Part shown: positions 6,291 through 55,545 of the stretch, one piece after another | How the letters are laid out: each line of letters starts with the position of its first letter | Position numbering within the stretch: the stretch's first letter is position 1 | Assembly: GCA_963719225.1 (NCBI GenBank) | Contig: CAVRAY010000001.1 | Span: 1,728,001 to 1,792,000 of the forward strand | DNA from: Thermoanaerobaculia bacterium | Lineage (GTDB): Bacteria > Acidobacteriota > Thermoanaerobaculia > UBA5066 | Reading direction: 5' to 3' | DNA length: 64,000 nt | Program-made: the position numbers and the translations under genes | Notes under the pieces: generated by a model | Database searches by the model: none | Told to the model about the DNA's origin: nothing | Seen by the model: the letters and a program-made list of their open reading frames with translations, nothing else

Positions 6291-6329
6291 GAGAGAGAAA
6301 GAGAAGAGAAGATTTCTTTGAAGGTGAAT
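6291..6329 (+). repeat. Dispersed AT-rich motif copy A (purine tract + GATTTCTTTGAAGGTGAAT)
   Basis: 6311-6329 matches 29129-29147 at 18 of 19 positions. Confidence 0.75.
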
Positions 6330-7805
6330 AGGACAGTGGGAAACCCACGGCGCGCGACGCGTGTTTCGGTTCTCGTCGCGCTGTGCGTCACGCTCACCTG
6401 CGCGGCGCCGACGGCCCCCGCCGCGGAGGCGCGTCACGCGCCTTCCAAGCATAAATCTTCGGCTTCTTCGGTCGATACCCTCGTCACAGCGGCCCACGTC
6501 CTGACGATGGATGGAACTGATCACGTCTTTTCCCCCGGTGCCGTCGCCATCAAGGGCGGCAGGATCGTCGCCGTCGGCTCGCCGTCGGAGCTGTCGGCTC
6601 TTTATTCTCCGAAGCATAGAATTTCCCGTCCCCGTTCCGCCGTGCTTCCGGGCCTCGTCAACACGCACACGCACGCCGCGATGAACCTCCTGCGCGGCAT
6701 CGCGGACGATCTGCCTCTCATGGACTGGCTCACGAAGTTCATCTTTCCTGCGGAGGCGAAGAACGTTTCGCCCGGCTTCGTGAAGGCCGGAACGCTCCTC
6801 GCCTGTGCGGAGATGATCCGCGGCGGTACCACGACGTTTGCGGACATGTACTACTACGAGTCGGACGTCGCGGCAGCCGTGGACACCTGCGGGATGCGCG
6901 CCGTCCTGGGAGAGACGTGGCTCGACTTTCCCGTGCCCGACCACAAGGATCTCGCCGAATCGATCACGGTGACCCGCGCCTTCCTCGAGAGGTGGAAGGG
7001 TCACCCGCGTATCATCGCGGCCGTCGCCCCGCACGCGGCGTATACGAACGCGAAGGAGTCTTTCCAGGCCGCGAAGGCGCTCGCCGACGAGTTCCACGCC
7101 CCGCTTCTCATTCACCTTTCCGAAACGCGGGACGAGCAGAGGCAGCTCGCCGGGAAGTACGGGACCACGCCCACGAACTGGCTCGACTCGATCGGCTTCC
7201 TGGGTCCGAACGTCCTCGCGGCTCACTGCGTCTGGTGCGACGCGGACGACCTCCGCCTCCTTTCCGAGCGGCACGTCGGCCTCTCGCACAACCCGGAATC
7301 AAACATGAAGCTCGGGTCCGGCGTCGCGCCCGTCGCGGCGGCTCGGCGTGTCGGCATCGCGGTCGGCCTCGGGACGGACGGCGTCGCGGGCTCGAACAAC
7401 GACCTCGACATGTGGGAAGCGATGGACTTCGCCGGGAAGCTCGCGAAGGTCTCTGCGATGGACCCGACGGTGCTGCCGGCGAAGGACGTCCTCCGGATGG
7501 CGACGATCGAGGGCGCGCGGGCGATGAAGCTGGACGACCGCATCGGCTCGCTGGAGAGAGGGAAGCGAGCGGATCTCGCGGCCGTGGACCTCGTTCGGGC
7601 GGGGACGCAGCCCGTGTGGGACCTGTTCTCGACGCTCGTCTCCGTCGTCAAGGAAAGTGACGTCTCGCTCACGATGGTGGAAGGCCGCGTCCTCTGGAAC
7701 GGCAAACGCGTCACGTCCCTCGACGAGGCGAAGGTCATCCGGAACGCCGAAACGTGGCGGAAAAGAATCGCGGCGTCGCTCGCGTCGCCCACCGCGGCGA
7801 AATGA
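6318..7805 (+). CDS. Amidohydrolase, MTA/SAH deaminase (MtaD)-like, with signal-peptide-like N-terminus; exact start uncertain (TTG 6318 or GTG 6336)
   Basis: PGLVNTHTH, GTTTFADMY, IHLSET, SHNPESNMKLGSG, GLGTDG. Confidence 0.85.
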   Translation: MKVNRTVGNPRRATRVSVLVALCVTLTCAAPTAPAAEARHAPSKHKSSASSVDTLVTAAHVLTMDGTDHVFSPGAVAIKGGRIVAVGSPSELSALYSPKHRISRPRSAVLPGLVNTHTHAAMNLLRGIADDLPLMDWLTKFIFPAEAKNVSPGFVKAGTLLACAEMIRGGTTTFADMYYYESDVAAAVDTCGMRAVLGETWLDFPVPDHKDLAESITVTRAFLERWKGHPRIIAAVAPHAAYTNAKESFQAAKALADEFHAPLLIHLSETRDEQRQLAGKYGTTPTNWLDSIGFLGPNVLAAHCVWCDADDLRLLSERHVGLSHNPESNMKLGSGVAPVAAARRVGIAVGLGTDGVAGSNNDLDMWEAMDFAGKLAKVSAMDPTVLPAKDVLRMATIEGARAMKLDDRIGSLERGKRADLAAVDLVRAGTQPVWDLFSTLVSVVKESDVSLTMVEGRVLWNGKRVTSLDEAKVIRNAETWRKRIAASLASPTAAK

Positions 7806-9112
7806 GCCTCTTCGTCCGTACGATCGTGAAGAAGCGCGACGGCGGCGAACTGTCGGAAGGCGAGATCGGCGCCTTCGTCTCCGGCGTCACGGATGGAACG
7901 ATCACGGACGAGCAGGCGGCCGCGTTCCTGATGGCGGTGTGCTGCCGGGGCATGACGACCGCCGAGTCGGCCGCTTTGACGTTCGCAATGATGAAATCGG
8001 GCGAGACCTGGGACCTTTCGCGCCACGGCTTCGTCGCGGACAAGCACTCGACGGGGGGCGTGGGCGACAAGGCGACGCTCGTCCTCGCGCCGCTTCTCGC
8101 GGCCGTGGGCGTCAAGGCCGGGATGATGTCGGGGCGCGGCCTCGGGCACACCGGCGGCACGCTCGACAAGCTCGAGGCGATTCCCGGGTTCAAGACGGCC
8201 CTTCCGAAGGCGGATTTCGACCGGCTCCTCGATACCGTGGGGTGCGCGCTCATCGGCCAGACCGACTCGATCGCTCCCGCCGATCGCCGCCTCTACGCGC
8301 TGCGCGACGTGACGGGGACCGTGGAATCGATACCTCTCATCACGGCCTCGATCCTCTCCAAGAAGCTCGCGACCGGGGCTTCCGCCGTCGTCTTCGACGT
8401 GAAGACGGGGAACGGCGCGTTCATGTCCGACCCCCGGGATGCGAAGAGGCTGGGCTCGGCTCTCGTCGAGACGACGCGGGCGACGGGCCGCAAGGCCTCG
8501 GGCTACCTCACGGCGATGGACCGCCCTCTGGGCGAGGCCGTCGGGAACGCGAACGAGGTCGAGGAGTCGATCCGCATGCTCGGCGGCGAAGGGCCGGCCG
8601 ACCTGCGTGAGAACACGCTCCTCCTGGGCGCGGACCTCGTTCTCGCCGCTGGTCTGGAGACGAGCGCGAAGGAGGCCCGCCGGCGGCTGAATGCCGCCCT
8701 CTCCGACGGCCGGGCCCTGGAAGTTTTTCGGAAGCTCATCGCGGCGCAGGGCGGGGACGCGGGAGTCTGCGACGACCCGAAGAGACTCCCGCAGCCCGTC
8801 TCCCGCAGGGACGTCCCGGCGCCCGCCTCGGGAGTGGTCACCCGCATTGAGACGCGGGAAGTCGGGCTTCTCGCGATCGAGCTCGGCTGCGGGCGTACGA
8901 AGAAGGACGACGTCATCGACCCCGCGTCGGGATTTCGGGTGAAGAAGAAGCCCGGCGACGCCGTGGAGAAAGGCGAGCCCCTCCTCGTCGTCGAGCTCGG
9001 CCCGAACGCGAAACCAAACCCCACGTTCTACGACCGCCTCGCGGCGTGCTTCACGATCGCGCCGGCCGGTACTGTCGTCGAGTCGCTGCCCTTCGTCGTC
9101 GGGACGCTCTGA
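7802..9112 (+). CDS. pdp: Thymidine / pyrimidine-nucleoside phosphorylase
   Basis: DKHSTGGVGDK, MSGRGLGHTGGTLDKLE, SILSKKLA, DVKTGNGAFM; ATGA overlap. Confidence 0.93.
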   Translation: MSLFVRTIVKKRDGGELSEGEIGAFVSGVTDGTITDEQAAAFLMAVCCRGMTTAESAALTFAMMKSGETWDLSRHGFVADKHSTGGVGDKATLVLAPLLAAVGVKAGMMSGRGLGHTGGTLDKLEAIPGFKTALPKADFDRLLDTVGCALIGQTDSIAPADRRLYALRDVTGTVESIPLITASILSKKLATGASAVVFDVKTGNGAFMSDPRDAKRLGSALVETTRATGRKASGYLTAMDRPLGEAVGNANEVEESIRMLGGEGPADLRENTLLLGADLVLAAGLETSAKEARRRLNAALSDGRALEVFRKLIAAQGGDAGVCDDPKRLPQPVSRRDVPAPASGVVTRIETREVGLLAIELGCGRTKKDDVIDPASGFRVKKKPGDAVEKGEPLLVVELGPNAKPNPTFYDRLAACFTIAPAGTVVESLPFVVGTL

Positions 9113-9684
9113 TGGACCGGGAATCCGCGCGCGGCCTCCTGGTCAGCGTTCTCCGTCACGCCCACGCCGGCGAGCTCGCGGCCGGTCACGCGTACCGCGG
9201 ACACGCGGCGTCCGTCTCCGATCCCGCCGAGAAGGCCCGGATCCGGCAGATCGAGGACGAGGAGTGGGTGCATCGCCGGCAGGTCGGGGAGATGCTCGCA
9301 GCCCTCGGCGAGGGCCCGGAGCCTGCGCAGGAGAGGAAGCTCTTCTTCATCGGGAAGACGATCGCGCTCCTCTGCCGGATCGGCGGCTGGTACGTACCGA
9401 TGTACGGCGCGGGCCGGCTCGAGAGCCACAACGTCAAGGAGTACGAAGACGCGGCCGACTTCGCCGTCGACTCCGGACACCCGGAGTTTGTCGAGTGCCT
9501 TCTCGAGATGGCCGAGGTCGAGTGGGACCACGAGGCGTACTTCCGCGGGAAGGTCGAGAGCCACTGGCTCCGCCGCGTGATCCGCGTCTGGCCGGCGATC
9601 CCTCCGAAGGGCTCGATCCGGACGGACTTCGCCCACCGAAATTCTGGCTATGCGATGCCGGCCCGCGAGCCGCTCGCCGTCTGA
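9112..9684 (+). CDS. Ferritin-like di-iron protein (Coq7-like superfamily)
   Basis: HAGELAA, EEWVHR and EVEWDHE ExxH pairs; TGATG coupling to pdp. Confidence 0.7.
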   Translation: MDRESARGLLVSVLRHAHAGELAAGHAYRGHAASVSDPAEKARIRQIEDEEWVHRRQVGEMLAALGEGPEPAQERKLFFIGKTIALLCRIGGWYVPMYGAGRLESHNVKEYEDAADFAVDSGHPEFVECLLEMAEVEWDHEAYFRGKVESHWLRRVIRVWPAIPPKGSIRTDFAHRNSGYAMPAREPLAV

Positions 9685-10998: not shown

Positions 10999-13575
10999 TT
11001 GACGCTCGCTCCCGGCTCGAAGCTCGGCCCGTACGAAGTCGTCTCGCTTCTCGGCGCGGGCGGAATGGGTGAAGTCTGGAAGGCTCGTGACGCGCGACTC
11101 GGAAGAGAAGTCGCGATCAAGGTCCTGCCGGAAAATTTCTTGGAAGGTGAAGAGAGAAAGCAGCGCTTCGAGCGCGAGGCGAAGCTGTTGGCGAGCCTGA
11201 ATCATCCCGGAATCGCAACTCTCTACTCATTCGAAGAAATCCCCGGTTCTCCCGGTTCTCCTCCCCGGCACATCCTCGTCATGGAGCTTCTCGAAGGCGA
11301 GACGCTGCGCGAGCGGCTGCGAGCGGGGCCGCTGCCGCCGCGCAGAGCCGTCGACTTGGCCGTCCAGATGGCGAAGGCCCTCGCTGCGGCGCACGAGAAT
11401 GCAATCGTCCACCGGGATCTGAAGCCCGAGAACGTTTTCCTGACGAAGGACAGCCGGGTCAAGATCCTGGACTTCGGTCTCGCGAAGCTCACGCGGCGGG
11501 AAGCAGCGGTGGAGAAGCTCACGGAGGCCGGGACGCTGTCCGTCCTGACCGACGCGGGCGCGGTGTTCGGGACGGCGGGTTACATGTCTCCGGAGCAGGT
11601 TCGCGGCGAGCCTGTGGACGCCCGCTCGGACATCTTCAGCTTCGGCACGATCGTCTACGAGATGCTTTCCGGAAAGAACCCGTTCCGGGCGGCCACGACA
11701 GCCGAGACGATGACGGCCATCCTCAAGGAGGACCCGCCCGAGATTAGCGCGAGCCAGCCGAGCGCTTCTCCGGCGCTGGAGCGGATCGCCCGCCGGTGTC
11801 TGGAAAAGAACGCCGAGCAGCGTTTCCAGTCGGCGCGCGACGTGGGCTTCGCGCTCGAGGCGCTTTCGGGCTCCGCTTCCAAGGACACTGTCGCGGCTCC
11901 GAACAAAGCAGGCGGGTTCCTGCCGCGGCGTCCTTTCGCGGTCTTGGCCGCGAGCGTGTTGCTGGCTGCGGCGCTCGGTTTCCTGGGCGGCAAGGAGTTC
12001 ATGCCCTCGGCACTCCCGACCTTCAAGCGCCTCACGTTCCGACGGGGCTCGAACCAGTCCGCCCGGTTCGCGCCCGACGGGCAGACGGTCGTCTATGGCG
12101 CGGCGTGGGACGGCGGGCCGATTCGGGCCTACTCCACGGGCCTGAGCGGCCCCGAGTCGCGGCCGCTGGACCTCCCGAACGCCGACGTCGTGGCGGTCTC
12201 TCGCTCGGGCGAGCTCGCCATCCTCCTGAACCGGAATGACGGGGGTGTTCCCTTGAACACGGGCACCCTCGCGCGCGTGCCGCTCGCAGGCGGCGCCCCC
12301 CGCGAGCTCCTCCGGAATGTCTATGACGCGGACTGGTCTCCCGACGGGAAGGAGCTCGCCGTAGTGCGGCGTGACGGAACCCTCAGTCAGCTCGAGTTTC
12401 CGATCGGGACCATGCTCTACCGAGGCGCGTTTTACCGTGCCCGTGTCTCCCCGGACGGGAAACTCGTGGCCTTCCTGGAGAACGCAGTCGGCCTCTGCGT
12501 CGTGGACCGAGCGGGCAAGAAGCGGCAGCTCACCGATTGGCGCATGCGGTTTCCCATCGGCGGCGTCGCGTGGTCGCCGAAGGGCGACGAGGTCTGGTAC
12601 GCGGGGAGCGAGGGCATCGGCGACTCCCTCTACGCCGTTACGCTTTCGGGGAAGCAGCGGGTCGTGGCTCGCTTCCCTTCCTTTGCCGTCCTCCAGGACA
12701 TCTCGCCGGGCGGCCGCGTCCTCGTCACGCTCGGCGAGCTGCGGAGCGGGATCATCGGGCTTCCCCCGGGAGAAACCCGTGAGCGCGATCTGTCCTGGCT
12801 CGACTATCCCAGTATCGTGGTCCTCTCGAAAGACGGGACGACACTCCTCTTCCACGAGTCGGGGGAGGGAGTCCGTGGCACAAGGACACTCTATCTCCGG
12901 CGGACCGACGGGCTCTCGCCGCCTGTAAGGCTCGGCGAGGGGTCTGGAGAGGCCCTTTCGGATGACTTGAAGTGGGTGCTCGCGATGCGGAAGGGTGTCA
13001 AGGCGGAATGGCTTCTCTGGCCCACGGGAGCCGGGGAATCGAGGGTCGTCCGCGGGTCGGACCTCGAGCTCGAAGGGGGAGAATTCTTCCCCGACGGCAA
13101 ACGGCTCCTCCTGGAGGGCCGGCAGCCGGGGCGGCCCGCGAGGCTGTTCGTCATGGACCTTCCAGATGGAGAGCCGCGCCCGCTCACGCCTGAAGGCATC
13201 GTTTTTCTCAACGGACAGGCAGGGGTCTCTCCCGATGGTCGGTCCGTCGCGGCGAAGGGCCCCAACGGAGAGATCCTCATTTTCGGCGCGGACGGTGGAG
13301 AGCCCCGGACACTTCCGGGCCCTTGGGAATCCCGGGTTGGCCCGTGGAGCGCGGACGGGCGATCGTTTTACGTGTCGGAGCGCCAGGGGACTGTCATCAA
13401 GGTATTCCGGCGAGACCTCGCGAGCGGCCGCCGGGAGCCCGTCCGGGAAATCACCCCCTCCGATCCGGCCGGCGTTTTCGCGATTACCTCGCTCCTTTCC
13501 CAGGACGGGGCGTCCTACGTGTATGCCTACTGGCGCCACCTCTCGAACCTCTACGTCGTTGACGGGTTGAAATAG
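10999..13575 (+). CDS. Ser/Thr protein kinase with TM helix and TolB/PD40-like beta-propeller
   Basis: GAGGMG, VAIK, HRDLKPEN, DFG, YMSPEQ; TM at about aa 310-330; repeated (W/F)SPDG. Confidence 0.92.
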   Translation: MTLAPGSKLGPYEVVSLLGAGGMGEVWKARDARLGREVAIKVLPENFLEGEERKQRFEREAKLLASLNHPGIATLYSFEEIPGSPGSPPRHILVMELLEGETLRERLRAGPLPPRRAVDLAVQMAKALAAAHENAIVHRDLKPENVFLTKDSRVKILDFGLAKLTRREAAVEKLTEAGTLSVLTDAGAVFGTAGYMSPEQVRGEPVDARSDIFSFGTIVYEMLSGKNPFRAATTAETMTAILKEDPPEISASQPSASPALERIARRCLEKNAEQRFQSARDVGFALEALSGSASKDTVAAPNKAGGFLPRRPFAVLAASVLLAAALGFLGGKEFMPSALPTFKRLTFRRGSNQSARFAPDGQTVVYGAAWDGGPIRAYSTGLSGPESRPLDLPNADVVAVSRSGELAILLNRNDGGVPLNTGTLARVPLAGGAPRELLRNVYDADWSPDGKELAVVRRDGTLSQLEFPIGTMLYRGAFYRARVSPDGKLVAFLENAVGLCVVDRAGKKRQLTDWRMRFPIGGVAWSPKGDEVWYAGSEGIGDSLYAVTLSGKQRVVARFPSFAVLQDISPGGRVLVTLGELRSGIIGLPPGETRERDLSWLDYPSIVVLSKDGTTLLFHESGEGVRGTRTLYLRRTDGLSPPVRLGEGSGEALSDDLKWVLAMRKGVKAEWLLWPTGAGESRVVRGSDLELEGGEFFPDGKRLLLEGRQPGRPARLFVMDLPDGEPRPLTPEGIVFLNGQAGVSPDGRSVAAKGPNGEILIFGADGGEPRTLPGPWESRVGPWSADGRSFYVSERQGTVIKVFRRDLASGRREPVREITPSDPAGVFAITSLLSQDGASYVYAYWRHLSNLYVVDGLK
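11131..11242. repeat. Convergent pair of dispersed motif copies inside the kinase gene
   Basis: ATTTCTTGGAAGGTGAA (+, 11135-11151) is identical to 29130-29146; CATTCGAAGAAATCC (11228-11242, motif on minus strand) is identical to 51169-51183. Confidence 0.75.
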
Positions 13576-19992: not shown

Positions 19993-22086
19993 GTGCTGTA
20001 CCGGCTCGAAAACGTCAGGAAAAGCTTCGGGACGAAGGACGTCCTCGTGGATGCGACGTGGCAGCACGATCCGGGGCGAATCGTGGGCCTCGTGGGGCGG
20101 AACGGCGCGGGGAAGTCGACCGTCCTGAAGATCGTTCAGGGCCTCGTGGAGCCCGACGGCGGCAAGCTGTATGTGGCGGGTGGAACGACCTTTGCCTCGC
20201 TGGACCAGGCGGTCGAGCCGGAAGGCTACGAGCCTCTCCGCACTTTCGTCGCGCGCGCGCAGGAGCCTCTTCTCGCGTTCGAGCGCGAGATGAGGCGCCT
20301 GGAGGAGGCCATCGCCACGCACGGGGCCGACGGCGACCGCGCCGCGCTCGACGCGCTCCTCGGCGAGCACGACGAGGTGCGCGAGCATTTCCAGCGCGCG
20401 GGCGGCTACGAGGCGGACGCCCGCGTGGACCGGGTGCTCATGGGCGTCGGCCTCGTGCGGGCGATGTGGGACCGGCCCGTGGGAGAGCTCTCGGGCGGCC
20501 AGAAACATCGTGCCCAGATCGCACGGCTTCTGCTGACGGACGCTTCGGTTCTCCTCCTCGACGAGCCCACGAACCACCTCGACGTGGACGGAATCGAGTT
20601 CCTCGAGAGCTGGCTCGTGGAGCGGAAGACGAGCACCGGCCTCTCGGCTCTCGTGGTCTCGCACGACCGCCGCTTTCTGGATGCCGTCGCGGACCGCATC
20701 GTCGAGGTCGCGCACGGCCGTCTCGAGGACTATCCGGGCGACTACGCCACGTACCGCAAGCTCAAGGCCGAGCGCGAGCGTCTCCGCGCGAAGGAGGCCG
20801 AGAAACAGCGGCAGATGATCGAGCGGACCGAGGAGTTCATTCGCCGCAACATCGCCGGACAGAAGACGAAACAGGCCCAGGGGCGACGGAAGATGCTGGC
20901 GCGGATCGAGAGGATCGAGGCGCCGCGGGAGGATGCGAACGAAGTCTCGATCCGCTTCGAGGAGGCGCGCGTCTCCGGAGGGCGCGTGCTCGAGGCGAAG
21001 AAGCTCGTGCCGGGCTACCGCGAGACGGGACCGCTCCTCGAGCCGGTATCGTTCCTCCTGCGCCGCGGGGACCGCCTCGCGCTCTGGGGGCCGAACGGCT
21101 GCGGCAAGACGACGCTCCTCAAGACGCTCGCACGCGTGCTGCCTCCGATCTCCGGCTCGGCAGTGCCGGGCACGGGCGTCCTCATCGGCTACTACGACCA
21201 GGAGATGGGAGATCTTCCGGTCGAGGCGACGGCGCTCGACGCCGTGATGGACCTCGACCCTACGATGAAGGAGAGCGAAGCCCGCGACTTCCTCGCGCTC
21301 TTCGACTTCCGCGGGGACGAGGTCTTCCAGAAGATCGCGACGCTCTCGGGCGGCGAGAAGGGGCGCCTCTCGCTCGCTCGCATCGTCTTCGGCGGGGCGA
21401 ACTTCCTGCTCCTGGACGAGCCCACGAACCACCTCGACCTCGACGCGCGCGAGCAGCTCGAGGACGCCCTGGAAGCGTTCGAGGGCGCGATCGTCTTCGT
21501 GAGCCACGACCGCTGGTTCGTGGACCGCATCGCGACACAGATGCTGGAAATTCGGGACGGGAAGGCCGAGCTCCACGAAGGTAACTACTCGGATCTCGTC
21601 AGGAGGAAGAAGGAGATTCTTGCTCCCTCGCAGGACGATTCGGCGGGGCGCGACGACCTACAGTGGGGCAGGGGAGACGCGGTCTTTTCTTCGAAGGGTA
21701 AGAAAGACAAAGATAAAGATTCTTCGAAGGGTAAGAAGGGTAAGGGCGGCTCGGCGGGAGCCGCCGCAGCGAAGCCCGGCACCGCGCCTCATCCCTCTTC
21801 CCCCTCTAAGAAATCTTCCTCTTCTTCTCCGGACCGGACCGCCGAGAGGCGGCGTCTGAAGAACCAGAGAATCCTCGCCGACCTCGAAGACTCGATCACG
21901 CGCCTCGAGGAGGAGATCCGGTCGCTCGATCTCTCCCTCGCCAACCCCGACGTCTTCCGCGACGGAGACAAGGTCCGGCAGGTGAAATCGGCACGCGAGC
22001 AGGCGCGCCGGACACTCGAGGCGAAGCTGTGGGAATGGGAGGAGACGTCTCGCAAGCTCCAGACGGGCGCGGAAGTGCCGGCGTGA
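19993..22086 (+). CDS. ABC-F family ATPase with C-terminal coiled coil
   Basis: Two ABC cassettes (GRNGAGKS/LSGGQ, GPNGCGKT/LSGGE), two LLDEPTNHLD; no TM. Confidence 0.92.
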   Translation: MLYRLENVRKSFGTKDVLVDATWQHDPGRIVGLVGRNGAGKSTVLKIVQGLVEPDGGKLYVAGGTTFASLDQAVEPEGYEPLRTFVARAQEPLLAFEREMRRLEEAIATHGADGDRAALDALLGEHDEVREHFQRAGGYEADARVDRVLMGVGLVRAMWDRPVGELSGGQKHRAQIARLLLTDASVLLLDEPTNHLDVDGIEFLESWLVERKTSTGLSALVVSHDRRFLDAVADRIVEVAHGRLEDYPGDYATYRKLKAERERLRAKEAEKQRQMIERTEEFIRRNIAGQKTKQAQGRRKMLARIERIEAPREDANEVSIRFEEARVSGGRVLEAKKLVPGYRETGPLLEPVSFLLRRGDRLALWGPNGCGKTTLLKTLARVLPPISGSAVPGTGVLIGYYDQEMGDLPVEATALDAVMDLDPTMKESEARDFLALFDFRGDEVFQKIATLSGGEKGRLSLARIVFGGANFLLLDEPTNHLDLDAREQLEDALEAFEGAIVFVSHDRWFVDRIATQMLEIRDGKAELHEGNYSDLVRRKKEILAPSQDDSAGRDDLQWGRGDAVFSSKGKKDKDKDSSKGKKGKGGSAGAAAAKPGTAPHPSSPSKKSSSSSPDRTAERRRLKNQRILADLEDSITRLEEEIRSLDLSLANPDVFRDGDKVRQVKSAREQARRTLEAKLWEWEETSRKLQTGAEVPA
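21685..21830. repeat. Three dispersed motif copies inside the ABC-F linker (two direct, one inverted)
   Basis: TTCTTCGAAGGGTAAGAA at 21687-21704 and 21720-21737; TCTAAGAAATCTT at 21805-21817 is identical to 54821-54833. Confidence 0.75.
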
Positions 22087-29110: not shown

Positions 29111-29164
29111 TCACCCTCGTAAAGAAAAGATTTCTTGGAAGGTGAATCCCGCCGGACGGCGGGA
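29111..29164 (+). promoter_or_regulatory. Structured leader before the TonB receptor, containing a dispersed motif copy (29129-29147) and a GC hairpin (29147-29164)
   Basis: TCACC/GGTGA and AAGAAA/TTTCTT can pair; TCCCGCC-GGAC-GGCGGGA hairpin. Confidence 0.45.
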
Positions 29165-29224: not shown

Positions 29225-31663
29225 ATGTCCATTCCCGGCACGGCGCGAAGCGCCGCAGCATTTCTTCTCTTTCTCGGCTTTTCCCTGACTCTTTCGCGGC
29301 CGCTATCCGCCGCGTCGGCCGCGGGTGGACAGATCCGCGGTCACGTAACCGGTCCGGACGGCAAACCGCTCCCGGGCGTCACGATCGTCCTCGCGAACGA
29401 CATCACCGGATACCGGCTGCAGGTTACGTCCGGGGGTGACGGAAGCTATCTTCTCTACAACGTGCCCCCGAATCCCTATCACCTCACGGCGGCTCTCCAG
29501 GGTTTCGCCCCGTTCCACACCGACGTGGACGTCCGCGGGAGCATCCCCGTGACGCGCGAGATCTCGCTCGGGATCACAGCGACGGCTGCGGAGTCCGTGA
29601 CGGCCGAGAAGGAGTCGGTCGAGCTGGAAACCGACACCTCGACGACGCACATCGACATCGACAAGTCCCTGATCCGCCGCGCACCCGCGCCGGTCGCATC
29701 CCGGGCGTTCGAGTCGCTCGTGACGTCGACGCCTGGCTTCTCGCAGGACGAGAACGGCCGCTACCATTTTCAGGGCAGCCACTCGCAGCAGCTCCTCGTC
29801 GTGGACGGCCAGCCGATCGGCGACATGATCGGCGTCACCTTTTCCAACTCGCTCGATCCCGCTGTGGCCGAAAGCATCGAGATCGTCACAGGAGGCATTC
29901 CGGCCGAGTATGGAGAGAAGGCGAACGGCGTCATCAACCTGACGACGCGCTCCGGTCTCGGGAGCGGATCCTTCAAGGGGGACGTCGGTATCGGTGCGGC
30001 GCGCTTCTCGACGTACGAGGGCGCCGCAGGCGTCGGGGGAGGGACGTCGCGGTTCGGCTGGTTCGTCAACCTCGATGCCTCGAAGTCCGACCGTTTCCTG
30101 GACCCGGTTTCGTTCGACAACTTCCACAACGAGGGGAACACCGAGCGCGCATTTCTCAGGCTCGATTCCGTTTCCGAAGGCGGCTCGGACTCGTTCCGCC
30201 TGACCGGCAACGTCGGCCGGACGGTCCGCGACGTGACGAACCTGCCCTCACAAGAGGAGGCAGGCCAGGACCAGAGCGTCCTCTCCCACGACTGGAACTT
30301 CAACCTCGGCTATCAAAAGGTGCTTTCGGGCAGCCTCGTCCTCGAGGCGCAGGTCTACGCCCGGGACAACCGTCTGACACTCTATTCGTCCTCGAACGAC
30401 ACTCCGGTCACAGCCGACCAGAACCGGTCTTTGGAGAATCAGGGGATCAACCTCGCTCTCTCGAAGCAGGCCGGCGCGCACGAGCTGAAGGTGGGCATAC
30501 AGGCCAAACGTTTTCCGATCAAAGAGCAGTTCTCCTTCGGGATCACGGATCCCTCCTTCAACGACCCCGACTCCGAAAGCTACAACCCGAATCTCGCGCC
30601 TTACGACCTGACGCGCGGCGGAACGCGATTCAACTTCTCCGGATCGCGTACCGGTACGTACGTCGCGGGCTACATCCAGGACAACATCCGCTGGAACGAC
30701 CTGACGATCAACGCCGGCGTCCGCTTCGACCGAAACGACGTCTTCGAGACGGAGAACGAGCTCCAGCCGCGAATCGGGCTGGCGTACTTCCTGAGATCGA
30801 CCAGCACGGTCTTCCGGGCCTCGTACAACCGCATGCTCATCACGCCGGAGTACGAGAACATCCTGCTCTCCTCCTCGGCGGAGGCCGCGAGGGTCGCGCC
30901 TCCCGAGATCCAGGAATCACGCGAGCTCGGCGGCGGCTTCCTTACGAATCCCTCCGAGCGCCACGACGCTTTCAACGTCGGGATCCAGCAGGGAATCGGC
31001 AGCAAGCTGAGGCTCGACCTGTCGTACTGGTACCGGTCGGTGAAGAACCCGGCCGACCAGGCCCAGTTCTTCAATACCGGCATCGTCTTTCCGGTCAACT
31101 TCGCGAGCGGCCAGTTCCGCGGCTGGAATGCACGCCTCGACCTGGCCCCTGTCCTCGGCGGCCTGCGTGGTTACGTTTCCGTGGGGCACGTCGAATCGAA
31201 GTACTGCAATCCGGCGATCGGCGGGCTCTTCGTCGACCCGGAGGCCTTCGAGTCCCTCGCGGGAGGGTGCTTCATCATCGATCACGACCAGGACATCCAG
31301 CAGCAAGCCGGGTTCTTCTGGGACTTCGGCCAGTCCGGCTTCTGGGCCGGCGTCACGCAGCGCTACGACTCCGGCCTCGTGACCGACGCCGGCGCACCCG
31401 AGGACGTCCTGTCGTCGCCCGACACCGCCTATGCCGATCCGTTCCTGAGGTACGACGAGGACCCGCAGCGCGTCAAGTCACGCACGATTTGGAACTTCTC
31501 CCTGGGCGCGCGCCTGCAGAAATACGGCGTCCCGCTCGAGCTCCAAGTCGACCTTCTCAACGCATTCGACAAACAGGGTCTCTACAACTTCCAGTCGCCC
31601 TTCGGCGGCACGCACGTAATTCCGCCGCGGACGCTCGCGGGACGGGTCAAGTTCGTGTTCTAG
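29225..31663 (+). CDS. TonB-dependent receptor with N-terminal carboxypeptidase-regulatory-like domain
   Basis: GGAGG RBS, signal peptide, IRGHVTGPDGKPLPGVTI, GGIPAEYG, C-terminal KFVF. Confidence 0.88.
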   Translation: MSIPGTARSAAAFLLFLGFSLTLSRPLSAASAAGGQIRGHVTGPDGKPLPGVTIVLANDITGYRLQVTSGGDGSYLLYNVPPNPYHLTAALQGFAPFHTDVDVRGSIPVTREISLGITATAAESVTAEKESVELETDTSTTHIDIDKSLIRRAPAPVASRAFESLVTSTPGFSQDENGRYHFQGSHSQQLLVVDGQPIGDMIGVTFSNSLDPAVAESIEIVTGGIPAEYGEKANGVINLTTRSGLGSGSFKGDVGIGAARFSTYEGAAGVGGGTSRFGWFVNLDASKSDRFLDPVSFDNFHNEGNTERAFLRLDSVSEGGSDSFRLTGNVGRTVRDVTNLPSQEEAGQDQSVLSHDWNFNLGYQKVLSGSLVLEAQVYARDNRLTLYSSSNDTPVTADQNRSLENQGINLALSKQAGAHELKVGIQAKRFPIKEQFSFGITDPSFNDPDSESYNPNLAPYDLTRGGTRFNFSGSRTGTYVAGYIQDNIRWNDLTINAGVRFDRNDVFETENELQPRIGLAYFLRSTSTVFRASYNRMLITPEYENILLSSSAEAARVAPPEIQESRELGGGFLTNPSERHDAFNVGIQQGIGSKLRLDLSYWYRSVKNPADQAQFFNTGIVFPVNFASGQFRGWNARLDLAPVLGGLRGYVSVGHVESKYCNPAIGGLFVDPEAFESLAGGCFIIDHDQDIQQQAGFFWDFGQSGFWAGVTQRYDSGLVTDAGAPEDVLSSPDTAYADPFLRYDEDPQRVKSRTIWNFSLGARLQKYGVPLELQVDLLNAFDKQGLYNFQSPFGGTHVIPPRTLAGRVKFVF

Positions 31664-49271: not shown

Positions 49272-50007
49272 TTCCGGCCCTCTTCACTTTCTAAGCAGAA
49301 TTCTCTTTCTTTGTCTTATCTCCTCCTCCGTGTCTCGGGCCGAGGATCCCGCGGCGCTGCTGCGGCGCGCCGAGCGCATCAAGGATGCCTGGCCGGAGGT
49401 CGTCATCACGCTGCGCGTGACGACGACGCAGGCCGGCGCGCCGCCGGCCACCGGGATCTTCTCGGTCGAGGCGAAAGGCCGCGACAAGTCGCGCATCCGC
49501 TTTCAGAATCCTTCCGACGCCGGCAAGTCCGTCGTCCAGGTCGGTGACGACGTCTGGCTCGTCCTGCCGAACACGAAGAATCCGATCCGTGTGCCGAAGA
49601 GCCATCGCCTGAGAGGCGGATTCTCGGCGGCCGACATGGCGCGCACGCGGTTCGTGGACGACTACGACCCGGTTCTGGAGCGGACCGACGTGCTGAACGG
49701 CATGAGCTGCGCCGTCCTTCGTCTCACGGCGAGAGCGGGGAAGCATCCCTCGTATCCGATTGTGCGCGTCTGGATCGACGAGAAGGAAGCGCTCTACCGC
49801 AAGGCGGTTTTCCTCGTCTCGTCGGGAAAGACCGCGCGGGAGACCACGTTCGACGCGTACCGTCCGTTCCACGGCATCCTCTCGCTCGCGAAGATGACGA
49901 TCGTGGATACGCTCCGGACGGGCACGACGGTCGTCGAGTACCTCGACTACGAGAAGAAGAGTCTTCCGGACTCGACGTTCGAGGTCAGGACGGCCCCGCC
50001 GGCTTGA
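49264..50007 (+). CDS. LolA-like outer membrane lipoprotein-sorting protein
   Basis: Signal-like N-terminus; KSRIRFQNPSDAG, GGFSAADM, RVWID; operon context. Confidence 0.75.
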   Translation: MFDSGPLHFLSRILFLCLISSSVSRAEDPAALLRRAERIKDAWPEVVITLRVTTTQAGAPPATGIFSVEAKGRDKSRIRFQNPSDAGKSVVQVGDDVWLVLPNTKNPIRVPKSHRLRGGFSAADMARTRFVDDYDPVLERTDVLNGMSCAVLRLTARAGKHPSYPIVRVWIDEKEALYRKAVFLVSSGKTARETTFDAYRPFHGILSLAKMTIVDTLRTGTTVVEYLDYEKKSLPDSTFEVRTAPPA

Positions 50008-51877
50008 CGGCGAGCCACCGCGCGAACCACCTCACGAGAGTCACGTTCGAGCGGATGCGATTCGGGAGCTTCTGGAAGCCGTGGCCCTCGTCCGGGAAGA
50101 GGACGTACTCGACGGGAATGCCCCGCTTCTTCAGGCTCGCGGCGACCTGCTCGGCCTCGATGACGGGAACGTTCGTGTCGTTCGCGCCGTGGAGGATGAG
50201 CGTGGGCGTCTTGACGCGGTCGATCCTCGTGAGCGGCGAGAGCCTGTCGAGCATTTCGCCCTCGGTGTCCGGATCTCCGTACTCGATCTTCGAGATCGCG
50301 GCCATCCAGGCTTCCGTATGCTCGAAGAACGTCTTGAAGTTCACGACGCCGAAGAGGTCGACGCCGGCCGCGAACATGTCCGGGTAATCGGCCAGCCCGG
50401 CCATCGTCATGTAGCCGCCATAAGAGCCGCCCATGATCCCGAGGCGTTTCGGGTCGGCGACGCCGGCCTTCACGACCGCATCCACGCAGGAGACGATGTC
50501 CTTGACGGCGTTCGCGCGCAGCGCGCCGTTGTCGAGGTTCACGAAACGCTTCCCGAAGCCCGCCGAGCCGCGGACATTCGGCGCGAAGACGGCAATGCCT
50601 TGCGAGACGAGCGCCTGGTAATCACTTCGAAAAGACGGTACCTCCTGCCCCTCGGGCCCTCCGTGGAAGGACAGGACGACGGGACCTGGGCCCTTCGAGC
50701 CCTTCGGCCGATAGAGCCATCCGGAGAGCGGCTCGCCGTCGTGAGCCTTGAATCTGAGCAGCTCGGGAGAGACGAGAGAGGAAAGATCGACGCCCGGGTG
50801 GGGGCTCTCGGTGAGGCGGGTGAAGCGCGGAGAAGAGGAAGAGATTTCTTCGAGTAGGAAGATGTCGGACGGCGCCGTCGCGCTCGACACGGTCATCGCG
50901 AGCGTCTTGCCGTCGCGCGACCACGTCAGGCCGGACGCGAGATCTCCGGGCAGCTTCGGCCCCGAACGCATTTCCTTTCTAAGCAAATCTTCAAACGCCA
51001 GTTCATGGCGCCCCGCCACGTTCCAGATGAGCGCGGCCTTCTCTCCCTTTTCGTCGATCGCAAACGACGCGAGCTCCGCATCCTCCCGCGCCGCGACGAT
51101 CTCGATCGGACCGGGGACGCCGGCATCGGACACGGCGATCCGCGCGAAGGCGAGCCTGTCCCGATTTCCATTCGAAGAAATCCAGAGGACCTTTCCGTCC
51201 GGAGAGAACACACCCGAATAGGTTCCCGGGCCTTCATGCGGCGTGAGGAGCATCTCCTTCTTCGTCGCGAGATCCACGAGAAAGAGGTCGTTGCTGCCGC
51301 GGTAGCGTAGGCGATTGAGGAGGGCGCGCTTTCCGTCGCGCGACAGATCCTCGAAGCCGCCGATGCCCGGGTTCGTGACGACGAGCTCGAGCGCTCCGGT
51401 GTCGGGATCGTAGAGGTAGGCGTCGATGGCTGCGCCCATTCGCCGATTCGAGCCCAGGGCGAGCTTCCGGCCGTCGTGACGAAAGCCGCCGAGGCGGTTC
51501 GTCTCCTTGCCGCCATCCGTGAGGCGCTCGAGGCCCGTGCCGTCGGGGCGCACGAGGTACACCTGCGTGTTCATGCCGCCGCCGGGTGCGAGGGTGAACG
51601 CAATCCACTTGCCGTCCGGCGACCATTCGACCCCGCCGACGGGATCGTCGGACGACGTGACCATGCGAGGGAACCCGCCCTTCGCCGGCACGGTCCACAC
51701 CTGCGGCAGTCCGCTGAGATTCGAGACGAAGGCGATCGTGCTCCCATCGGGGGAGAAGCTCGGCGAGCGCGAGAAGCCGACCCGCGACATGCGCGAGACC
51801 GCGGTCTCGAGGTCGTCGGCGGCGAGGGGGAACACGGCGAGGGCGGCAGCGGCGGCGAGGAGCATCTTGAATTGCAT
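49985..51877 (-). CDS. S9 prolyl oligopeptidase family peptidase, exported
   Basis: HGGPE, GGSYGGY, HGANDTNVP, DEGHG; N-terminal propeller. Confidence 0.92.
   Translation of the reverse strand: MQFKMLLAAAAALAVFPLAADDLETAVSRMSRVGFSRSPSFSPDGSTIAFVSNLSGLPQVWTVPAKGGFPRMVTSSDDPVGGVEWSPDGKWIAFTLAPGGGMNTQVYLVRPDGTGLERLTDGGKETNRLGGFRHDGRKLALGSNRRMGAAIDAYLYDPDTGALELVVTNPGIGGFEDLSRDGKRALLNRLRYRGSNDLFLVDLATKKEMLLTPHEGPGTYSGVFSPDGKVLWISSNGNRDRLAFARIAVSDAGVPGPIEIVAAREDAELASFAIDEKGEKAALIWNVAGRHELAFEDLLRKEMRSGPKLPGDLASGLTWSRDGKTLAMTVSSATAPSDIFLLEEISSSSPRFTRLTESPHPGVDLSSLVSPELLRFKAHDGEPLSGWLYRPKGSKGPGPVVLSFHGGPEGQEVPSFRSDYQALVSQGIAVFAPNVRGSAGFGKRFVNLDNGALRANAVKDIVSCVDAVVKAGVADPKRLGIMGGSYGGYMTMAGLADYPDMFAAGVDLFGVVNFKTFFEHTEAWMAAISKIEYGDPDTEGEMLDRLSPLTRIDRVKTPTLILHGANDTNVPVIEAEQVAASLKKRGIPVEYVLFPDEGHGFQKLPNRIRSNVTLVRWFARWLAVKPAGPS
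50831..51183. repeat. Three dispersed motif copies in the S9 peptidase gene
   Basis: GATTTCTTCGAG (+, 50843); CTTTCTAAGCA (50975-50985) is identical to 49287-49297; CATTCGAAGAAATCC (51169-51183). Confidence 0.7.
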
Positions 51878-51990: not shown

Positions 51991-52878
51991 TCACTCTTGG
52001 GGGCGCGGGGTCTCGAGTGTCGTGTCCAGGTCGGACCCGCTCTCGAGCACCCAGCCGACCTCGCCGACATCCTTCGGTCGGGTCGCGGGGTCCTTCTCGA
52101 GACAGCTGGCAACGAGGTCCCGCAGCTTCTGGGAAACCTCCGGGCCCAAAGACCGCCAGTCGGGCGCGCCCGCGAGGACGGCCGCGAGCGATTCCGTCGC
52201 GTTTCGGCCTGCAAACGCGTGGCGGCCCGAGAGCATCTCGTAGAGGACGCACCCGAAGGACCAGACGTCGGACGCCGGCCCGACCGGCTCACCGCGCACC
52301 TGCTCGGGCGACATGTAGCCCATGGTGCCCACGGCGAATCCGATGCCGGTCACCACGGAGGCCGTATCGGCGACGGAGATGTTGCCGGGGGCGCCGGCCC
52401 CTGGCGCCGTCCGCGCGAGGCCGAAGTCGAGGATCTTCGCGCCCGCGCTCGTGAGGAAGATGTTCTGGGGCTTGAGGTCACGGTGGACGAACCCGAGCTC
52501 GTGCGCATGCGCGAGCCCCCGCGCGACGTCCGAGCCGATGCGGCGCACCTCCGACTCGGAGAGCCGCCCGCGGGCGAGCCGCGCCGCGAGGGTCTCCCCC
52601 TCGAGGAGCTCCATGACGAAATAGGCGACGGCGCCTTCGCTTCCCGCGTCGAAGAGCGTGCAGACGTTGGGATGCGTGAGCCGGGCCGCGATCTTCGCTT
52701 CGCGCGCGAATCGGCGGAGCGCGTCGGGATCGTCGCCATGCCGCGCGCCAACGACCTTGAGCGCGACGTCGCGATCGAGTCGCGTGTCGTGCGCCCGATA
52801 CACCTCGCCCATTCCTCCGGCGCCGAGCGGGGCAAGGACCTCGTACGGCCCGAGGCGCGTCCCAGCTCTGAGCGTCAC
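51991..52878 (-). CDS. Stand-alone Ser/Thr kinase domain (no sensor domain; possibly truncated)
   Basis: GAGGMGEVY, HRDLKPQN, DFG, YMSPEQ; stops shortly after the kinase C-lobe. Confidence 0.82.
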   Translation of the reverse strand: MTLRAGTRLGPYEVLAPLGAGGMGEVYRAHDTRLDRDVALKVVGARHGDDPDALRRFAREAKIAARLTHPNVCTLFDAGSEGAVAYFVMELLEGETLAARLARGRLSESEVRRIGSDVARGLAHAHELGFVHRDLKPQNIFLTSAGAKILDFGLARTAPGAGAPGNISVADTASVVTGIGFAVGTMGYMSPEQVRGEPVGPASDVWSFGCVLYEMLSGRHAFAGRNATESLAAVLAGAPDWRSLGPEVSQKLRDLVASCLEKDPATRPKDVGEVGWVLESGSDLDTTLETPRPQE

Positions 52879-52891
52879 GTCCCGAGCGCTT

Positions 52892-54370
52892 TCATCGACG
52901 GGAACGCGGCGTCGCGCTCCTGTTGCCCGACATCAGCGCGACGTAGATGCCGCCCGCCGCGAAGAAGCCCACGAACCAGGCGTAGTCGTAGAGGGGCTTC
53001 AGCGGCGGGATCACGAGGCCGCCCCACGCAAGGAAGCAGCCGGCGAATGTCGCGACGACCGCGGGAGCATTCCAGCCGCCGTATGCGCCGTCCTTCAGGT
53101 AGAGCGCCTTGAGGTCGAGGGTCTTCTTCCGCACGATCCAGTAGTCGGCGATCAGGACCCCCGCGATCGAGCCGAGGCCTCCCGAGTAACCGAGCAGCCA
53201 CGTGAAGATATAGCCCTTCGGGTCGGCGAGGAGGCGCCACGGCTGCATGGCGATGCCGAGGAGACCGGTGATGAGGCCGCCCGTCTTGAAGCTGATGTAG
53301 CGGGGGAGGGCGTTCGCGAAGTCGTTCGCGGGCGAGACGACGTTCGCGGCGATGTTGACGGCCAGCGTCGCGACGACGACGGAGAACATCGCGACCGCCA
53401 CGACGAGCGGGTTCGTGAATTTCCCGACGAGCTTGACGGGATCCCAGATCGCCTCGCCGAAGATGATCGCGCTCGCGCTCGTGATGAGGACGCCCATCGC
53501 CGCGAACGCGAACATCGTCGTGGGCAACGCGACGGCCTGGCCGACGACCTGCTCTCTCTGGCTCCGGCCGAAGCGCGTGAAGTCCGGCATGTTGAGCGAA
53601 AGCGTGGCCCAGAAGCCGATCATCGCCGTGAGCGAGGGGATGAAGACGGGGAAGAACGCGCGGAACGTCCGGAATTTTCCGGGCTGGGCGAGGAGCGGCC
53701 CGAGCCCGTTCGCCTTGTTCACGGCCCACACGAGCAGGACGATCGTCACAACGAGGACGTAGGGGGCGGCCCAGTTCTCGACCTTGCGGAGGAGGTCCAT
53801 GCCCCGGTAGATGACGAAGATGTTCAGACCCCAGAAGAGAAGGAACGAGAGCCATTCCGTGGTCGTGTGGCCGGAAAACCCGGAGCCCAGGAGCGTGGGC
53901 CAGCCCGGGAAGACCGCGGCGAAGAAGGTGTAGAGAGCCTCCCCGCCGATCCAGGTCTGGATCCCGAACCAGCCGCAGGCGACGAGGGCGCGCATGAGCG
54001 CCGGCAGGTTCGAGCCCGCGGTGCCGTAGGCGGCGCGCGCGAAGACCGGGAATGGGATGCCGTATTTCGTACCGGGGTGGGAGTTCAGGAGGATCGGCAC
54101 GAGAACGATCGTGTTGCCGAGGAGGATCGTGAAGAGCGCCTGCTTCCAGTCCATCCCGCTGTTCATGAGGCCCGAGGCCAGCATGTACGTCGGGATGCAG
54201 TGCGCCATCGAGATCCACAGCGCGGCGTAGTTGTAGGTCGTCCACGTTCGGCGGGCGACCGGAACGGGCGCGAGATCGTCGTTGTAGAGCGGGCTCCGGG
54301 CGATCGCGGACGTATCCGCGAGCTCGACGCGGCCGTCCGCGTGGGCGATCTCGCCGGTCCCCGCGCTCAT
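52892..54370 (-). CDS. NCS1 nucleobase:cation symporter
   Basis: LYNDDLAP, WISMAHCIPTY, GFWATLSLNMPDFTRF, NIAANVVSPANDF. Confidence 0.92.
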   Translation of the reverse strand: MSAGTGEIAHADGRVELADTSAIARSPLYNDDLAPVPVARRTWTTYNYAALWISMAHCIPTYMLASGLMNSGMDWKQALFTILLGNTIVLVPILLNSHPGTKYGIPFPVFARAAYGTAGSNLPALMRALVACGWFGIQTWIGGEALYTFFAAVFPGWPTLLGSGFSGHTTTEWLSFLLFWGLNIFVIYRGMDLLRKVENWAAPYVLVVTIVLLVWAVNKANGLGPLLAQPGKFRTFRAFFPVFIPSLTAMIGFWATLSLNMPDFTRFGRSQREQVVGQAVALPTTMFAFAAMGVLITSASAIIFGEAIWDPVKLVGKFTNPLVVAVAMFSVVVATLAVNIAANVVSPANDFANALPRYISFKTGGLITGLLGIAMQPWRLLADPKGYIFTWLLGYSGGLGSIAGVLIADYWIVRKKTLDLKALYLKDGAYGGWNAPAVVATFAGCFLAWGGLVIPPLKPLYDYAWFVGFFAAGGIYVALMSGNRSATPRSRR

Positions 54371-54396
54371 GAGGTGCCGGAATGGTAACCCGGGTG

Positions 54397-55530
54397 CTAG
54401 CGCCTGGGGGGAGCGAGCGCGCCGAGGGCGGGCCTTTCCGCGATCATCTTCGAAAGGGCGAGCCCTCCGGCGCGAAGAGCGTCGGGCGAGCCGGGACGTG
54501 CGGCGAGCAAGGCGCCGGCGTCCCCTTCGATCGCGCTGTACGTGTCGGCCGCCACCAGGCCAAGCCACGGATCGGTACTCGGCGTCAGGAAGAGCTCGTC
54601 GTAGATGCGGTTCGTGAGGGCAGCGAGGTCGACAGGCCGGTTGGATCGTGAAAGCCACTGCTGGATCGTCCGCCGCAGAGAAACGTTGAGTGCCGTATCG
54701 GCGGCAAGCGACTGCTCGAAGTTGCGCACCGCGCGGGCGAAAGCGCTCGCGTCGGCGCCTCGCATCTTCACGCGCATGAGCTGGAGGCTGCTGGCGTCGA
54801 GGACGGTGCCCCTATTACCTTCTAAGAAATCTTTGGTGCTCTTCTTCCGTCCCCTCTCTATCTCTTGCAGAAACTCTCTCGGTCCCCAGAGTCCTGGCAA
54901 GACGTCGACAATGTCGGCATTGCTTGTCAGTAGGTAATGCAGGCTGTTTCCCGTGATCGTTCTCTCGAGCTTTCGCCCGTCTCCGAAGTCGATCGTGATT
55001 TTCGGTACCGGCCGAACGGATTCCCAGTGGAGAATCCAGTTGTTCCGCAGCTCGTCCGAGATCGCCGCATTCGCGTACAGCACGGTACGGAAGAAGCGGC
55101 TGTTCGCGCAGCTGAGCTCTTCGTCGAGGTTCCCGTGGAGGCGCAGGGAGAGGATCGGCTTTCCGGCTTTCGCGGCCGCGGCCTTCGCTGCGGCGAAGTC
55201 GGTGTACCAGTAGAGGCCCGACCACGCTGCGTCGCGCTGGCGCGCCACCGCGTCGAGGCCGGCCCGGAGCCGTTCCCATTCCGGCCGGAGAGGCGCCCCG
55301 GCGGCGAGGCCCTCGCGCATCGATTCGATGGCCGGGAGATTTTCTTCGAAGATGAGATTGAGGCCAGGCGGGCCCATTTCCCGGAGGCGCGCCCGCGCAG
55401 TGCCAGCGAGCGCCGGGTTCGCCAATACGGCGTCGCTTGCGAGTCGGTTTGTTTCGGAGACGGCCGCTGGCCCCGAGAGCAGTGCTGTGGTTGCCGCCAG
55501 GAGGAACGCCGTCGTCGATCTTCCCTTCAT
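54397..55530 (-). CDS. Exported protein with thioredoxin-like domain resembling the selenoprotein N C-terminus
   Basis: Signal peptide; WYTDFAAAKAAAAKAGKPILSLRLHGNLDEELSCANSRFFR. Confidence 0.65.
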   Translation of the reverse strand: MKGRSTTAFLLAATTALLSGPAAVSETNRLASDAVLANPALAGTARARLREMGPPGLNLIFEENLPAIESMREGLAAGAPLRPEWERLRAGLDAVARQRDAAWSGLYWYTDFAAAKAAAAKAGKPILSLRLHGNLDEELSCANSRFFRTVLYANAAISDELRNNWILHWESVRPVPKITIDFGDGRKLERTITGNSLHYLLTSNADIVDVLPGLWGPREFLQEIERGRKKSTKDFLEGNRGTVLDASSLQLMRVKMRGADASAFARAVRNFEQSLAADTALNVSLRRTIQQWLSRSNRPVDLAALTNRIYDELFLTPSTDPWLGLVAADTYSAIEGDAGALLAARPGSPDALRAGGLALSKMIAERPALGALAPPRR

Positions 55531-55545
55531 AGAAAATCTCCCGGT
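54813..55545. repeat. Three dispersed motif copies, including a 14-bp inverted pair
   Basis: GATTTCTTAGAAGGTAAT on minus strand (54814-54831); CCGGGAGATTTTCT at 55332-55345 (+) and its reverse complement at 55531-55544. Confidence 0.7.

Follow-up and report, generated by a model that had tools for sequence, protein, structure and literature searches.

A dispersed DNA motif of one genus of uncultured Thermoanaerobaculia, arranged in facing pairs, overwrites protein sequence and is denser towards dif

The chromosome of a Thermoanaerobaculia bacterium (genome G000; 4.75 Mb, 68% GC, 97% complete) carries several hundred copies of a short, AT-rich DNA motif. It came to attention in a stretch of 64,000 nucleotides, G000:C1:1728001-1792000 (hereafter the window), for which a preliminary description had proposed a signal for DNA uptake or chromosome organization. 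The motif is real, selected as DNA and clade-specific, and it is not in print in the literature searched, subscription papers and supplements lying outside that search. The unit of the element is a facing pair of polar arms, not a single site: ~700 arms in G000 make ~300 convergent pairs. What is new is a dispersed chromosomal signal with a paired grammar, the function of which we infer.

Each arm follows the consensus (purine tract)GATTTCTT[A/C]GAA[G/A]G[G/T]GAA. As a matrix profile, a purine tract leads through GAT(T) into a near-invariant core, TTCTT-N-GAA-D-G, followed by (G/T)(G/A)AA(T/G)AGGG; the motif as originally proposed stands, with its core corrected to this form. All 15 positions listed for it (counted at the time as 14) bear the motif on the strand assigned, the three exact strings said to be shared by unrelated loci are present, and the seven peptides quoted as its products (ENFLEGEE, SFEEIP, DSSKGKK, PSKKSSSSS, LEEISSSSP, WISSNG and KDFLEGN) follow from the DNA. 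The pattern ATTTN{0,3}CTWNGAARG occurs at seven places in the window against 0.03 expected, a number reached in 0 of 100 shuffles. Across G000 the motif dominates the over-represented words, TTTCTTAGAA having 197 copies where 0.6 are expected. A weight matrix gives 785 matches at ≥ 16 bits and 571 at ≥ 22 bits, against 103 and 21 in the reversed genome (the null for this and for the core-only scan); the matrix was trained on G000 itself, which somewhat inflates the observed side. At ≥ 16 bits it recovers 14 of the 15 listed copies, the exception being 6441(-), which has a non-purine flank and is found by the pattern scan.

The copies had been treated as independent sites; they form facing pairs, five of them within the window. 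In G000, neighbouring sites 40-300 bp apart are convergent in 279 cases against ~11 expected and divergent in 10 against ~11, which is chance level. Mutual pairing uses 500 of the 785 sites (250 pairs), and a core-only scan yields 306 pairs in G000 and none in the reversed genome. Strong arms that remain unpaired (n = 159) have a weak partner inward in 72 cases and outward in eight. The spacing of arm centres rises sharply at 65 bp, has its mode at 75-79 bp and tails to 300 bp, with 18 of the 306 pairs below 65 bp. A 10.5-bp helical phasing is absent between 65 and 150 bp (power 2.25, null 95% 3.04), which counts against a rigid short loop. An apparent 30-bp periodicity of the spacing is gone in G000 after removal of the first peak and persists in loci of other genomes through repeated orthologous pairs.

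Weaker same-direction copies cluster ~25-40 and 70-95 bp outside the arms, both in G000 and in other genomes. Around 567 arms, the 10-bp bins at -30 and -40 hold 52 and 27 such copies and those from -90 to -70 hold 30, 24 and 20; far-out bins hold 1-6, opposite-direction copies number 0-7 throughout, and other genomes repeat the outer excess (250 arms). Arms and extra copies together make a funnel that points inward at a gap of at least ~35 bp. The motif strand is C-poor to ~105-140 bp outside the arms; what a search for a further, separate motif picked up was codon periodicity. Interiors are 70% GC and unrelated except among paralogues (37 interiors of the 250 pairs fall in clusters). They fold little or no better than controls, without an excess of hairpins, and complementarity between true partners does not exceed that of swapped ones. 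The 4000 genes of G000 were called with an in-house hexamer model, so that genic and intergenic labels carry some error; with these labels 145 of the 250 pairs lie within one called gene and 61 are wholly intergenic, and the 10% of the DNA that is intergenic holds 266 of the 785 sites, a ~3-fold enrichment. Distances between pairs are random (coefficient of variation 1.1), with a mean of 13 kb in the terminus half.

The proposal that this is a lineage-specific cis-element, selected as DNA and overwriting proteins, is borne out by clade range, codon shuffles, rare codons and the conservation of fourfold-degenerate sites. In 3547 called genes, 442 coding sites are observed against 26-43 in eight within-gene codon-preserving shuffles, and 117 facing pairs lie in coding sequence against 0-1. 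Confidently called genes contain 244 TTA codons, 55 of them in arms, a 116-fold enrichment. Across 68 alignments from 25 genes, fourfold sites in the core are more conserved between species than those in the rest of the gene (0.74 against 0.59) and far poorer in GC (0.26 against 0.89). Those in interiors are slightly less conserved (0.55 against 0.59; lower in 15 of 22 genes), a drop too small to be a strong sign of cutting or error-prone repair. An in-gene pair is found in 162 genes, many of which encode Ser/Lys-rich and FLEG/FEEI patches; these patches stem from the DNA signal, which accounts for a recurrent annotation oddity in the genus.

Each arm is built separately, by substitution of a near-match or by a small insertion, and not as part of one inserted element. 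Relative to the motif-poor genome G082, the 57 in-gene pairs compared have gained ≤ 3 residues in 25 cases, 4-10 in 18 and > 10 in 14, and 48 interiors align over ≥ 70% of their length. Against motif-less genera (10 pairs) the corresponding gains number four, one and five, with seven interiors aligned over ≥ 70%; some interiors have grown. In ValS-, YicC- and RluD-like genes (names read from sequence) both arms overwrite collinear sequence without a gap.

An exact 12-mer of the motif is found at 27-245 copies in all 24 genus genomes and in none of 16 genomes from other families of the order (none of 15 without the unpublished G025). The paired pattern is present in 19 of 19 genus genomes and in two of three from the sister genus (11 pairs and one pair), is absent from 16 other members of the family, and occurs once in one of 362 genomes of other families, G025 included. 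A scan of public genomes returned at least 118 stretches with the paired pattern; among the 80 listed, 77 are titled Acidobacteriota or Thermoanaerobaculia and the remaining three, of ~40% GC, have one match each. None of the sequencing runs listed as holders was of RNA, and the best share was 0.12. No alternative paired motif was found in 268 kb of motif-less family members or in 200-240 kb of two other families. Insertion sequence ends are not linked to arms (3 of 27 repeated stretches have an arm within 250 bp).

Pair positions are maintained between species. The pair in a cca-like gene occupies a single position in all 12 covering loci. In the ABC-F gene of the window both arms are present in 13 of 15 genus loci and in none of five outgroup loci; the right arm stays put and the left arm lies at two alternative places according to lineage, a lost arm having been rebuilt nearby. 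Of the perfect-pair loci taken from other genomes, 75 are usable and 44 align across the pair in G000, where both arms are found at 28, one at 15 and none at one. The pair at 11137/11228 of the window, in a Ser/Thr kinase gene, is at the identical place in paralogues and in other genus genomes; a cluster of paralogous kinase genes at G000:C1:2295000-2316000 has seven members with the same 93-bp pair and two with a second pair. The kinases of G082 retain peptide scars of the motif written in GC-rich codons, and the state of that genome reads as decay of the element.

The origin, with dnaA and parB at C2:326-335 kb, lies at the minimum of the GC skew, and a dif-like site at C1:2,037,584, beside a second parAB, is near the skew maximum. 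The density of pairs climbs 3-4-fold from oriC to dif: each 100 kb holds 10-11 pairs at up to 400 kb from dif, 4.5 at a distance of 1.4-1.8 Mb and 2-3 around oriC, and intergenic sites show the same trend. In G019 sites are ~2.4-fold denser on stretches near the terminus-type parB (100 of 179 places listed), in rough agreement. Replichore polarity is absent, with 215 paired sites on the leading and 203 on the lagging strand and with 79 unpaired arms pointing towards dif and 84 away from it. An octamer that we take to be of the KOPS (FtsK-orienting polar sequence) type is skewed towards dif (243 against 151 on the left, 180 against 114 on the right), apart from the paired motif. In 13 of 16 genus genomes arms are found no more than 200 bp from dif, and the distances recur, which may be due to shared ancestry. 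The second parAB operon (G000:C1:2037865-2039524) is roughly opposite the origin parAB; a dif-side copy is also found in several other families of the order, with the ParB recognition helix conserved.

The reading we favour, with a probability of roughly 0.45, is that facing arms are one-way sites where DNA-tracking complexes load before converging on the interior, and that these complexes act for the terminus half of the chromosome. A putative lineage-specific protein complex would load at each polar arm and track inward, and a pair of opposed complexes would come together on the host sequence that separates the arms; the purpose would be to organize or segregate the terminus half, for example as a barrier or unloading point for SMC or as an aid to decatenation. 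The arm would be read by a protein that binds double-stranded DNA, because base-pairing between arms is loose, there is no strand bias with respect to transcription and selection acts on both arms. Two independently loaded, inward-moving complexes would need just such features as are seen: polarity of the site, pairing only face to face, a hard lower limit to the spacing, no fixed phase and spare copies upstream. The lower limit of ~65 bp would correspond to two footprints, and the complexes would move by sliding or translocation and would not form a rigid bridge. A published analogue of this geometry is MCM loading from opposed sites at yeast origins, described below. Being biased towards dif, the arms may act in organizing or segregating the terminus, as do MatP and the XerD sites that unload SMC (XDS), and the chromosome-organizing half of the original proposal gains support from this bias. 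XDS and MatP keep SMC complexes off the terminus, as part of PMC11840125 describes.

Several observations weigh against this interpretation. The density of sites in G082 is ~20-fold lower (13 against 271 per 1.1 Mb, mostly at orthologous places) and the number of exact 12-mers varies ~9-fold within the genus, so that a high number is not essential. The gradient is broad and not confined like a terminus macrodomain; three of the 16 genus genomes have no arm near dif, and related genomes are not independent. Molecular drive would account just as well for the footprint in permissive core genes. Seven candidate readers or families were checked and none tracks the motif; the comparison of gene sets covered 160 kb of the motif-less G166 and roughly one quarter of G082. 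Binding, tracking and phenotype are predictions from sequence.

DNA uptake sequences (DUS), Chi, KOPS and matS are dispersed motifs that rewrite proteins, and each led to a core DNA-handling machine. The grammar found here (facing pairs, minimum gap, free phase, inward funnel and bias towards dif) was found described for none of the four. With matS, XDS and KOPS the arms share dispersal and a terminus bias, those being motifs read by proteins, and KOPS are polar as the arms are. The differences are the broad gradient, the number of arms and sites that reach into the oriC region, together with the absence of a MatP homologue (0 of 5 genomes; the Escherichia coli control was positive) and of the strand polarity along replichores that marks KOPS, Chi and architecture-imparting sequences (AIMS). 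Nor does any ParB paralogue track the motif, as it would for parS or Noc-binding sites (NBS). We know of no short-range facing pairing described for matS/MatP, XDS or KOPS/FtsK.

The strongest competitor, a less probable one, is a recombination or transfer drive akin to that of DUS but needing two ends: an uptake, packaging or break-repair machine would prefer pair-bearing DNA, and pairs would spread wherever proteins tolerate them, reaching their highest density near the terminus because this part of the chromosome goes longest without a sister copy. Like DUS and the uptake signal sequences (USS), the motif is clade-specific and has hundreds of copies in coding sequence, in several frames, with permissive core genes enriched. 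Per 100 kb, shared genes of moderate conservation hold 23 sites, genes that have no G082 match 9.8 and highly conserved genes 2.4, a comparison that is partly circular because arms themselves lower identity. Flanks and interiors diverge faster (72% against a background of 81-82%), and the large variation in copy number and the random distances between pairs also suit a drive. The same pattern is reported for neisserial DUS in the cited part of PMC2397512: enrichment in permissive core genes, poorer accessory genes and more divergent flanks. That source also has DUS acting singly, their inverted pairs being terminators ≤ 21 nt apart, a geometry that is not matched because the unit here is a facing pair, mostly 65-300 bp apart, which has outer same-direction copies, is no terminator and becomes denser towards dif. 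The DNA-uptake half of the original proposal thus keeps its evolutionary footprint, in permissive parts of core genes and rarer in accessory genes, and fails on geometry. A receptor was not found: a ComP search gave 0 of 5 genomes, though no control genome scored either. Also against a drive are the slight drop in fourfold-site conservation within interiors and the viral scans, whose 6 and 22 matches, all of 31-46% GC and taken as chance, included no high-GC viral contig with the motif.

A more specific idea than inward loading in general is quite unlikely: that ring-shaped machines are placed head-to-head on the DNA between opposed sites, as in eukaryotic origin licensing, to act as backup origins or as SMC boundary elements where forks finish. 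If true, it would mean hundreds of opposed loading sites per bacterial chromosome. Archaeal origin recognition box (ORB) pairs, like the arms, are opposed polar sites. So are paired sites of the yeast origin recognition complex (ORC), from which, in the cited part of PMC12440816, MCM loading is best at 70-90 bp, still functions up to 300 bp and is indifferent to helical phase, the same phase-free distance profile as here. The likeness is a geometric analogy only, because Orc1/Cdc6 is not found above cut-off in five genomes (three control genomes are above it); the interior is moreover GC-rich and the skew has one oriC and one terminus.

The remaining explanations fit worse than inward loading or a drive. 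A symmetric nucleoid protein could grip both arms as a static clamp, pinning a small loop or plectoneme tip and insulating supercoiling domains at ~1 per 13 kb. Facing arms would lie side by side in such a folded-back loop, the ~65-bp lower limit suits a bending limit and pairs in the terminus half are on average 13 kb apart, but helical phasing is missing at 65-150 bp and the same-direction extras to 95 bp outside the arms are not needed. We regard a clamp as improbable.

Insertion as a unit, by a mobile inverted-repeat element since tolerated or domesticated, is largely refuted. The candidates are doublets of repetitive extragenic palindromes (REPs) that form hairpins (REPINs), MITEs (miniature inverted-repeat transposable elements) and Rickettsia palindromic elements (RPEs). 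REPINs are inverted doublets with a preferred spacing, as the pairs are, with peaks at 71 and 110 bp in the cited part of PMC3116915; RPEs and some REPs sit inside genes, according to part of PMC3733652; and the pairs with more than ten added residues would suit an insertion. Here, however, the interiors are native, unrelated and collinear with orthologues, so that no full-length unit in an empty site is seen; the arms overwrite sequence or are small separate insertions; the pairs are mostly intragenic, not extragenic; partners are not alike and do not fold into hairpins; and pair positions are old and common to several species. G000 has no Y1 gene and hence no REP-associated tyrosine transposase (RAYT), whereas three motif-bearing genomes have 1, 1 and 4 Y1 genes and the motif-less G166 has three.

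It is less probable still that the arms, as inverted repeats, pair in RNA or single-stranded DNA (as a processing stem or as a folded site of Xer or integron type) or flank a segment that can invert. By eye the core matches the reverse complement of the G000 XerD arm at 7 of 11 bases and that of the XerC arm at 6 of 11, and partner cores are marginally more alike than shuffles (78 of 1000). Over the whole arm, identity is 17.0 against 16.9 of 32 positions (reached by 162 of 1000 shuffles), and duplex energy is -26.2 against -25.8 kcal/mol, the true partner being better in 128 of 237 cases; the window has no Rfam match, and such pairing would not favour the facing orientation. As to inversion, 38 of 41 comparisons with orthologues show a collinear interior and the other three score at noise level, and there is no clade-specific tyrosine recombinase. 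No listed joint in the contigs of relatives falls at a pair, which tests little.

Least likely of all are transcription signals (convergent promoters, bidirectional terminators or Rho loading tracts): the intergenic enrichment, a strand that is C-rich ~100 bp outside each arm and a motif TAG that serves as stop codon in 11 cases speak for them, but sites per 10 kb show no preference for convergent gaps (5.8, 6.0 and 3.9 in convergent, tandem and divergent gaps), sense and antisense orientations in genes are equal (164 against 173 paired, 96 against 86 single) and most pairs are mid-gene.

The candidates for the predicted reader are distributed as follows. Two ParB proteins occur in motif-bearing and motif-less genomes alike, and the recognition helix of the terminus ParB is nearly unchanged. 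A fourth HU/IHF copy is also present in the motif-less G075. The second type II topoisomerase A subunit (G000:C1:1029345-1030676) is family-wide: of the 24 family genomes searched 23 have it, and four of five genomes of two other families lack it. A small basic protein at C1:2449644 was found in none of five relatives. A RepA-like helicase, also considered, belongs to an integrated element. The only tyrosine recombinases common to the genomes are of the XerC/D type, and G020 has only two. An orphan protein with tandem helix-turn-helix (HTH) domains (G000:C1:3836045-3836539; L253:1501-1992(-)) is in 30 of 32 family genomes, motif-less genera included, with its helices unchanged, and a role as motif reader is not supported by these sequences. 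It is basic, adjoins tRNA-Gln and consists of a tandem pair of three-helix domains, a linker rich in RGRP and a short domain at the C terminus; it has no Pfam family, scores < 0.9 in the Atlas and has no Foldseek match at E 0.001, its best Z of 6.1 being to generic three-helix bundles. It is a candidate nucleoid protein. When 1.1 Mb of G082, roughly one quarter of its genome, was subtracted, no convincing candidate emerged; G082 is not a clean negative, because a few pairs remain there. The family as a whole is a natural experiment, with genomes that have many, few or no pairs, so that the reader should be findable by proteome profiling and pull-down with clean controls.

The copies in the window are collected in Table 1. 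Its strongest arm, at 54818..54828, has no partner within 300 bp; there is a weak + site 374 bp off and a weak same-direction copy at 54868.

Table 1. Arms of the motif in the window, by position of the core.
Feature	Position	Strand	Pair (centres)	Spacing (bp)	Setting	Peptide or remark
Left arm	6314..6324	+	6318/6447	129	Between cytidine deaminase gene and called start of amidohydrolase gene	Purine tract from ~6290; 35 bits
Right arm, TGCTTGGAAGG variant	6441..6451	-	6318/6447	129		Faces 6318; under matrix threshold
Left arm	11137..11147	+	11141/11234	93	Ser/Thr kinase gene 10999-13575	ENFLEGEE
Right arm	11228..11238	-	11141/11234	93	Ser/Thr kinase gene 10999-13575	SFEEIP; interior is native kinase sequence
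Outer same-direction copy	21687..21697	+			ABC-F linker	33 bp outside left arm
Left arm	21720..21730	+	21724/21808	84	ABC-F gene 19993-22086	DSSKGKK
Right arm	21802..21812	-	21724/21808	84	ABC-F gene 19993-22086	PSKKSSSS
Unpaired arm	29132..29142	+			Upstream of gene 29225-31663	
Unpaired arm	49287..49297	-			Junction of ABC permease gene and LolA-like gene	
Left arm	50846..50856	+	50850/50981	131	S9 peptidase gene 49985-51877(-)	LEEISSSSP
Right arm	50975..50985	-	50850/50981	131	S9 peptidase gene 49985-51877(-)	DLLRKE; interior collinear with motif-poor G082 orthologue
Further same-direction arm	51169..51179	-			194 bp outside S9 peptidase right arm	WISSNG
Strongest arm of the window	54818..54828	-				KDFLEGN; 36.8 bits
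Left arm	55342..55352	+	55346/55530	184		
Right arm, degenerate, TTCTATGAAGG	55524..55534	-	55346/55530	184		Faces 55346

Between 36764 and 39603 of the window the gene caller gave only short pieces of apparent ABC permease and efflux genes, which are possibly frameshifted or degraded. Elsewhere in G000, an element integrated at tRNA-Arg (G000:C1:1666689-1680600) encodes an integrase and a RepA-like helicase, and its called genes have no arms. G000:C2:600000-800000 is a duplicate of C2 0-250 kb that brings another tmRNA and another tRNA-Pro, and is probably a co-binned piece of a related genome. The tail just after the 16S rRNA 3' end (G000:C1:905529-905560) has ten bases in common with a frequent arm variant read on its reverse strand, which is taken as chance. 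Another over-represented word, CCGTGAACCACAG-like, has ~26-41 copies in the k-mer table of G000.

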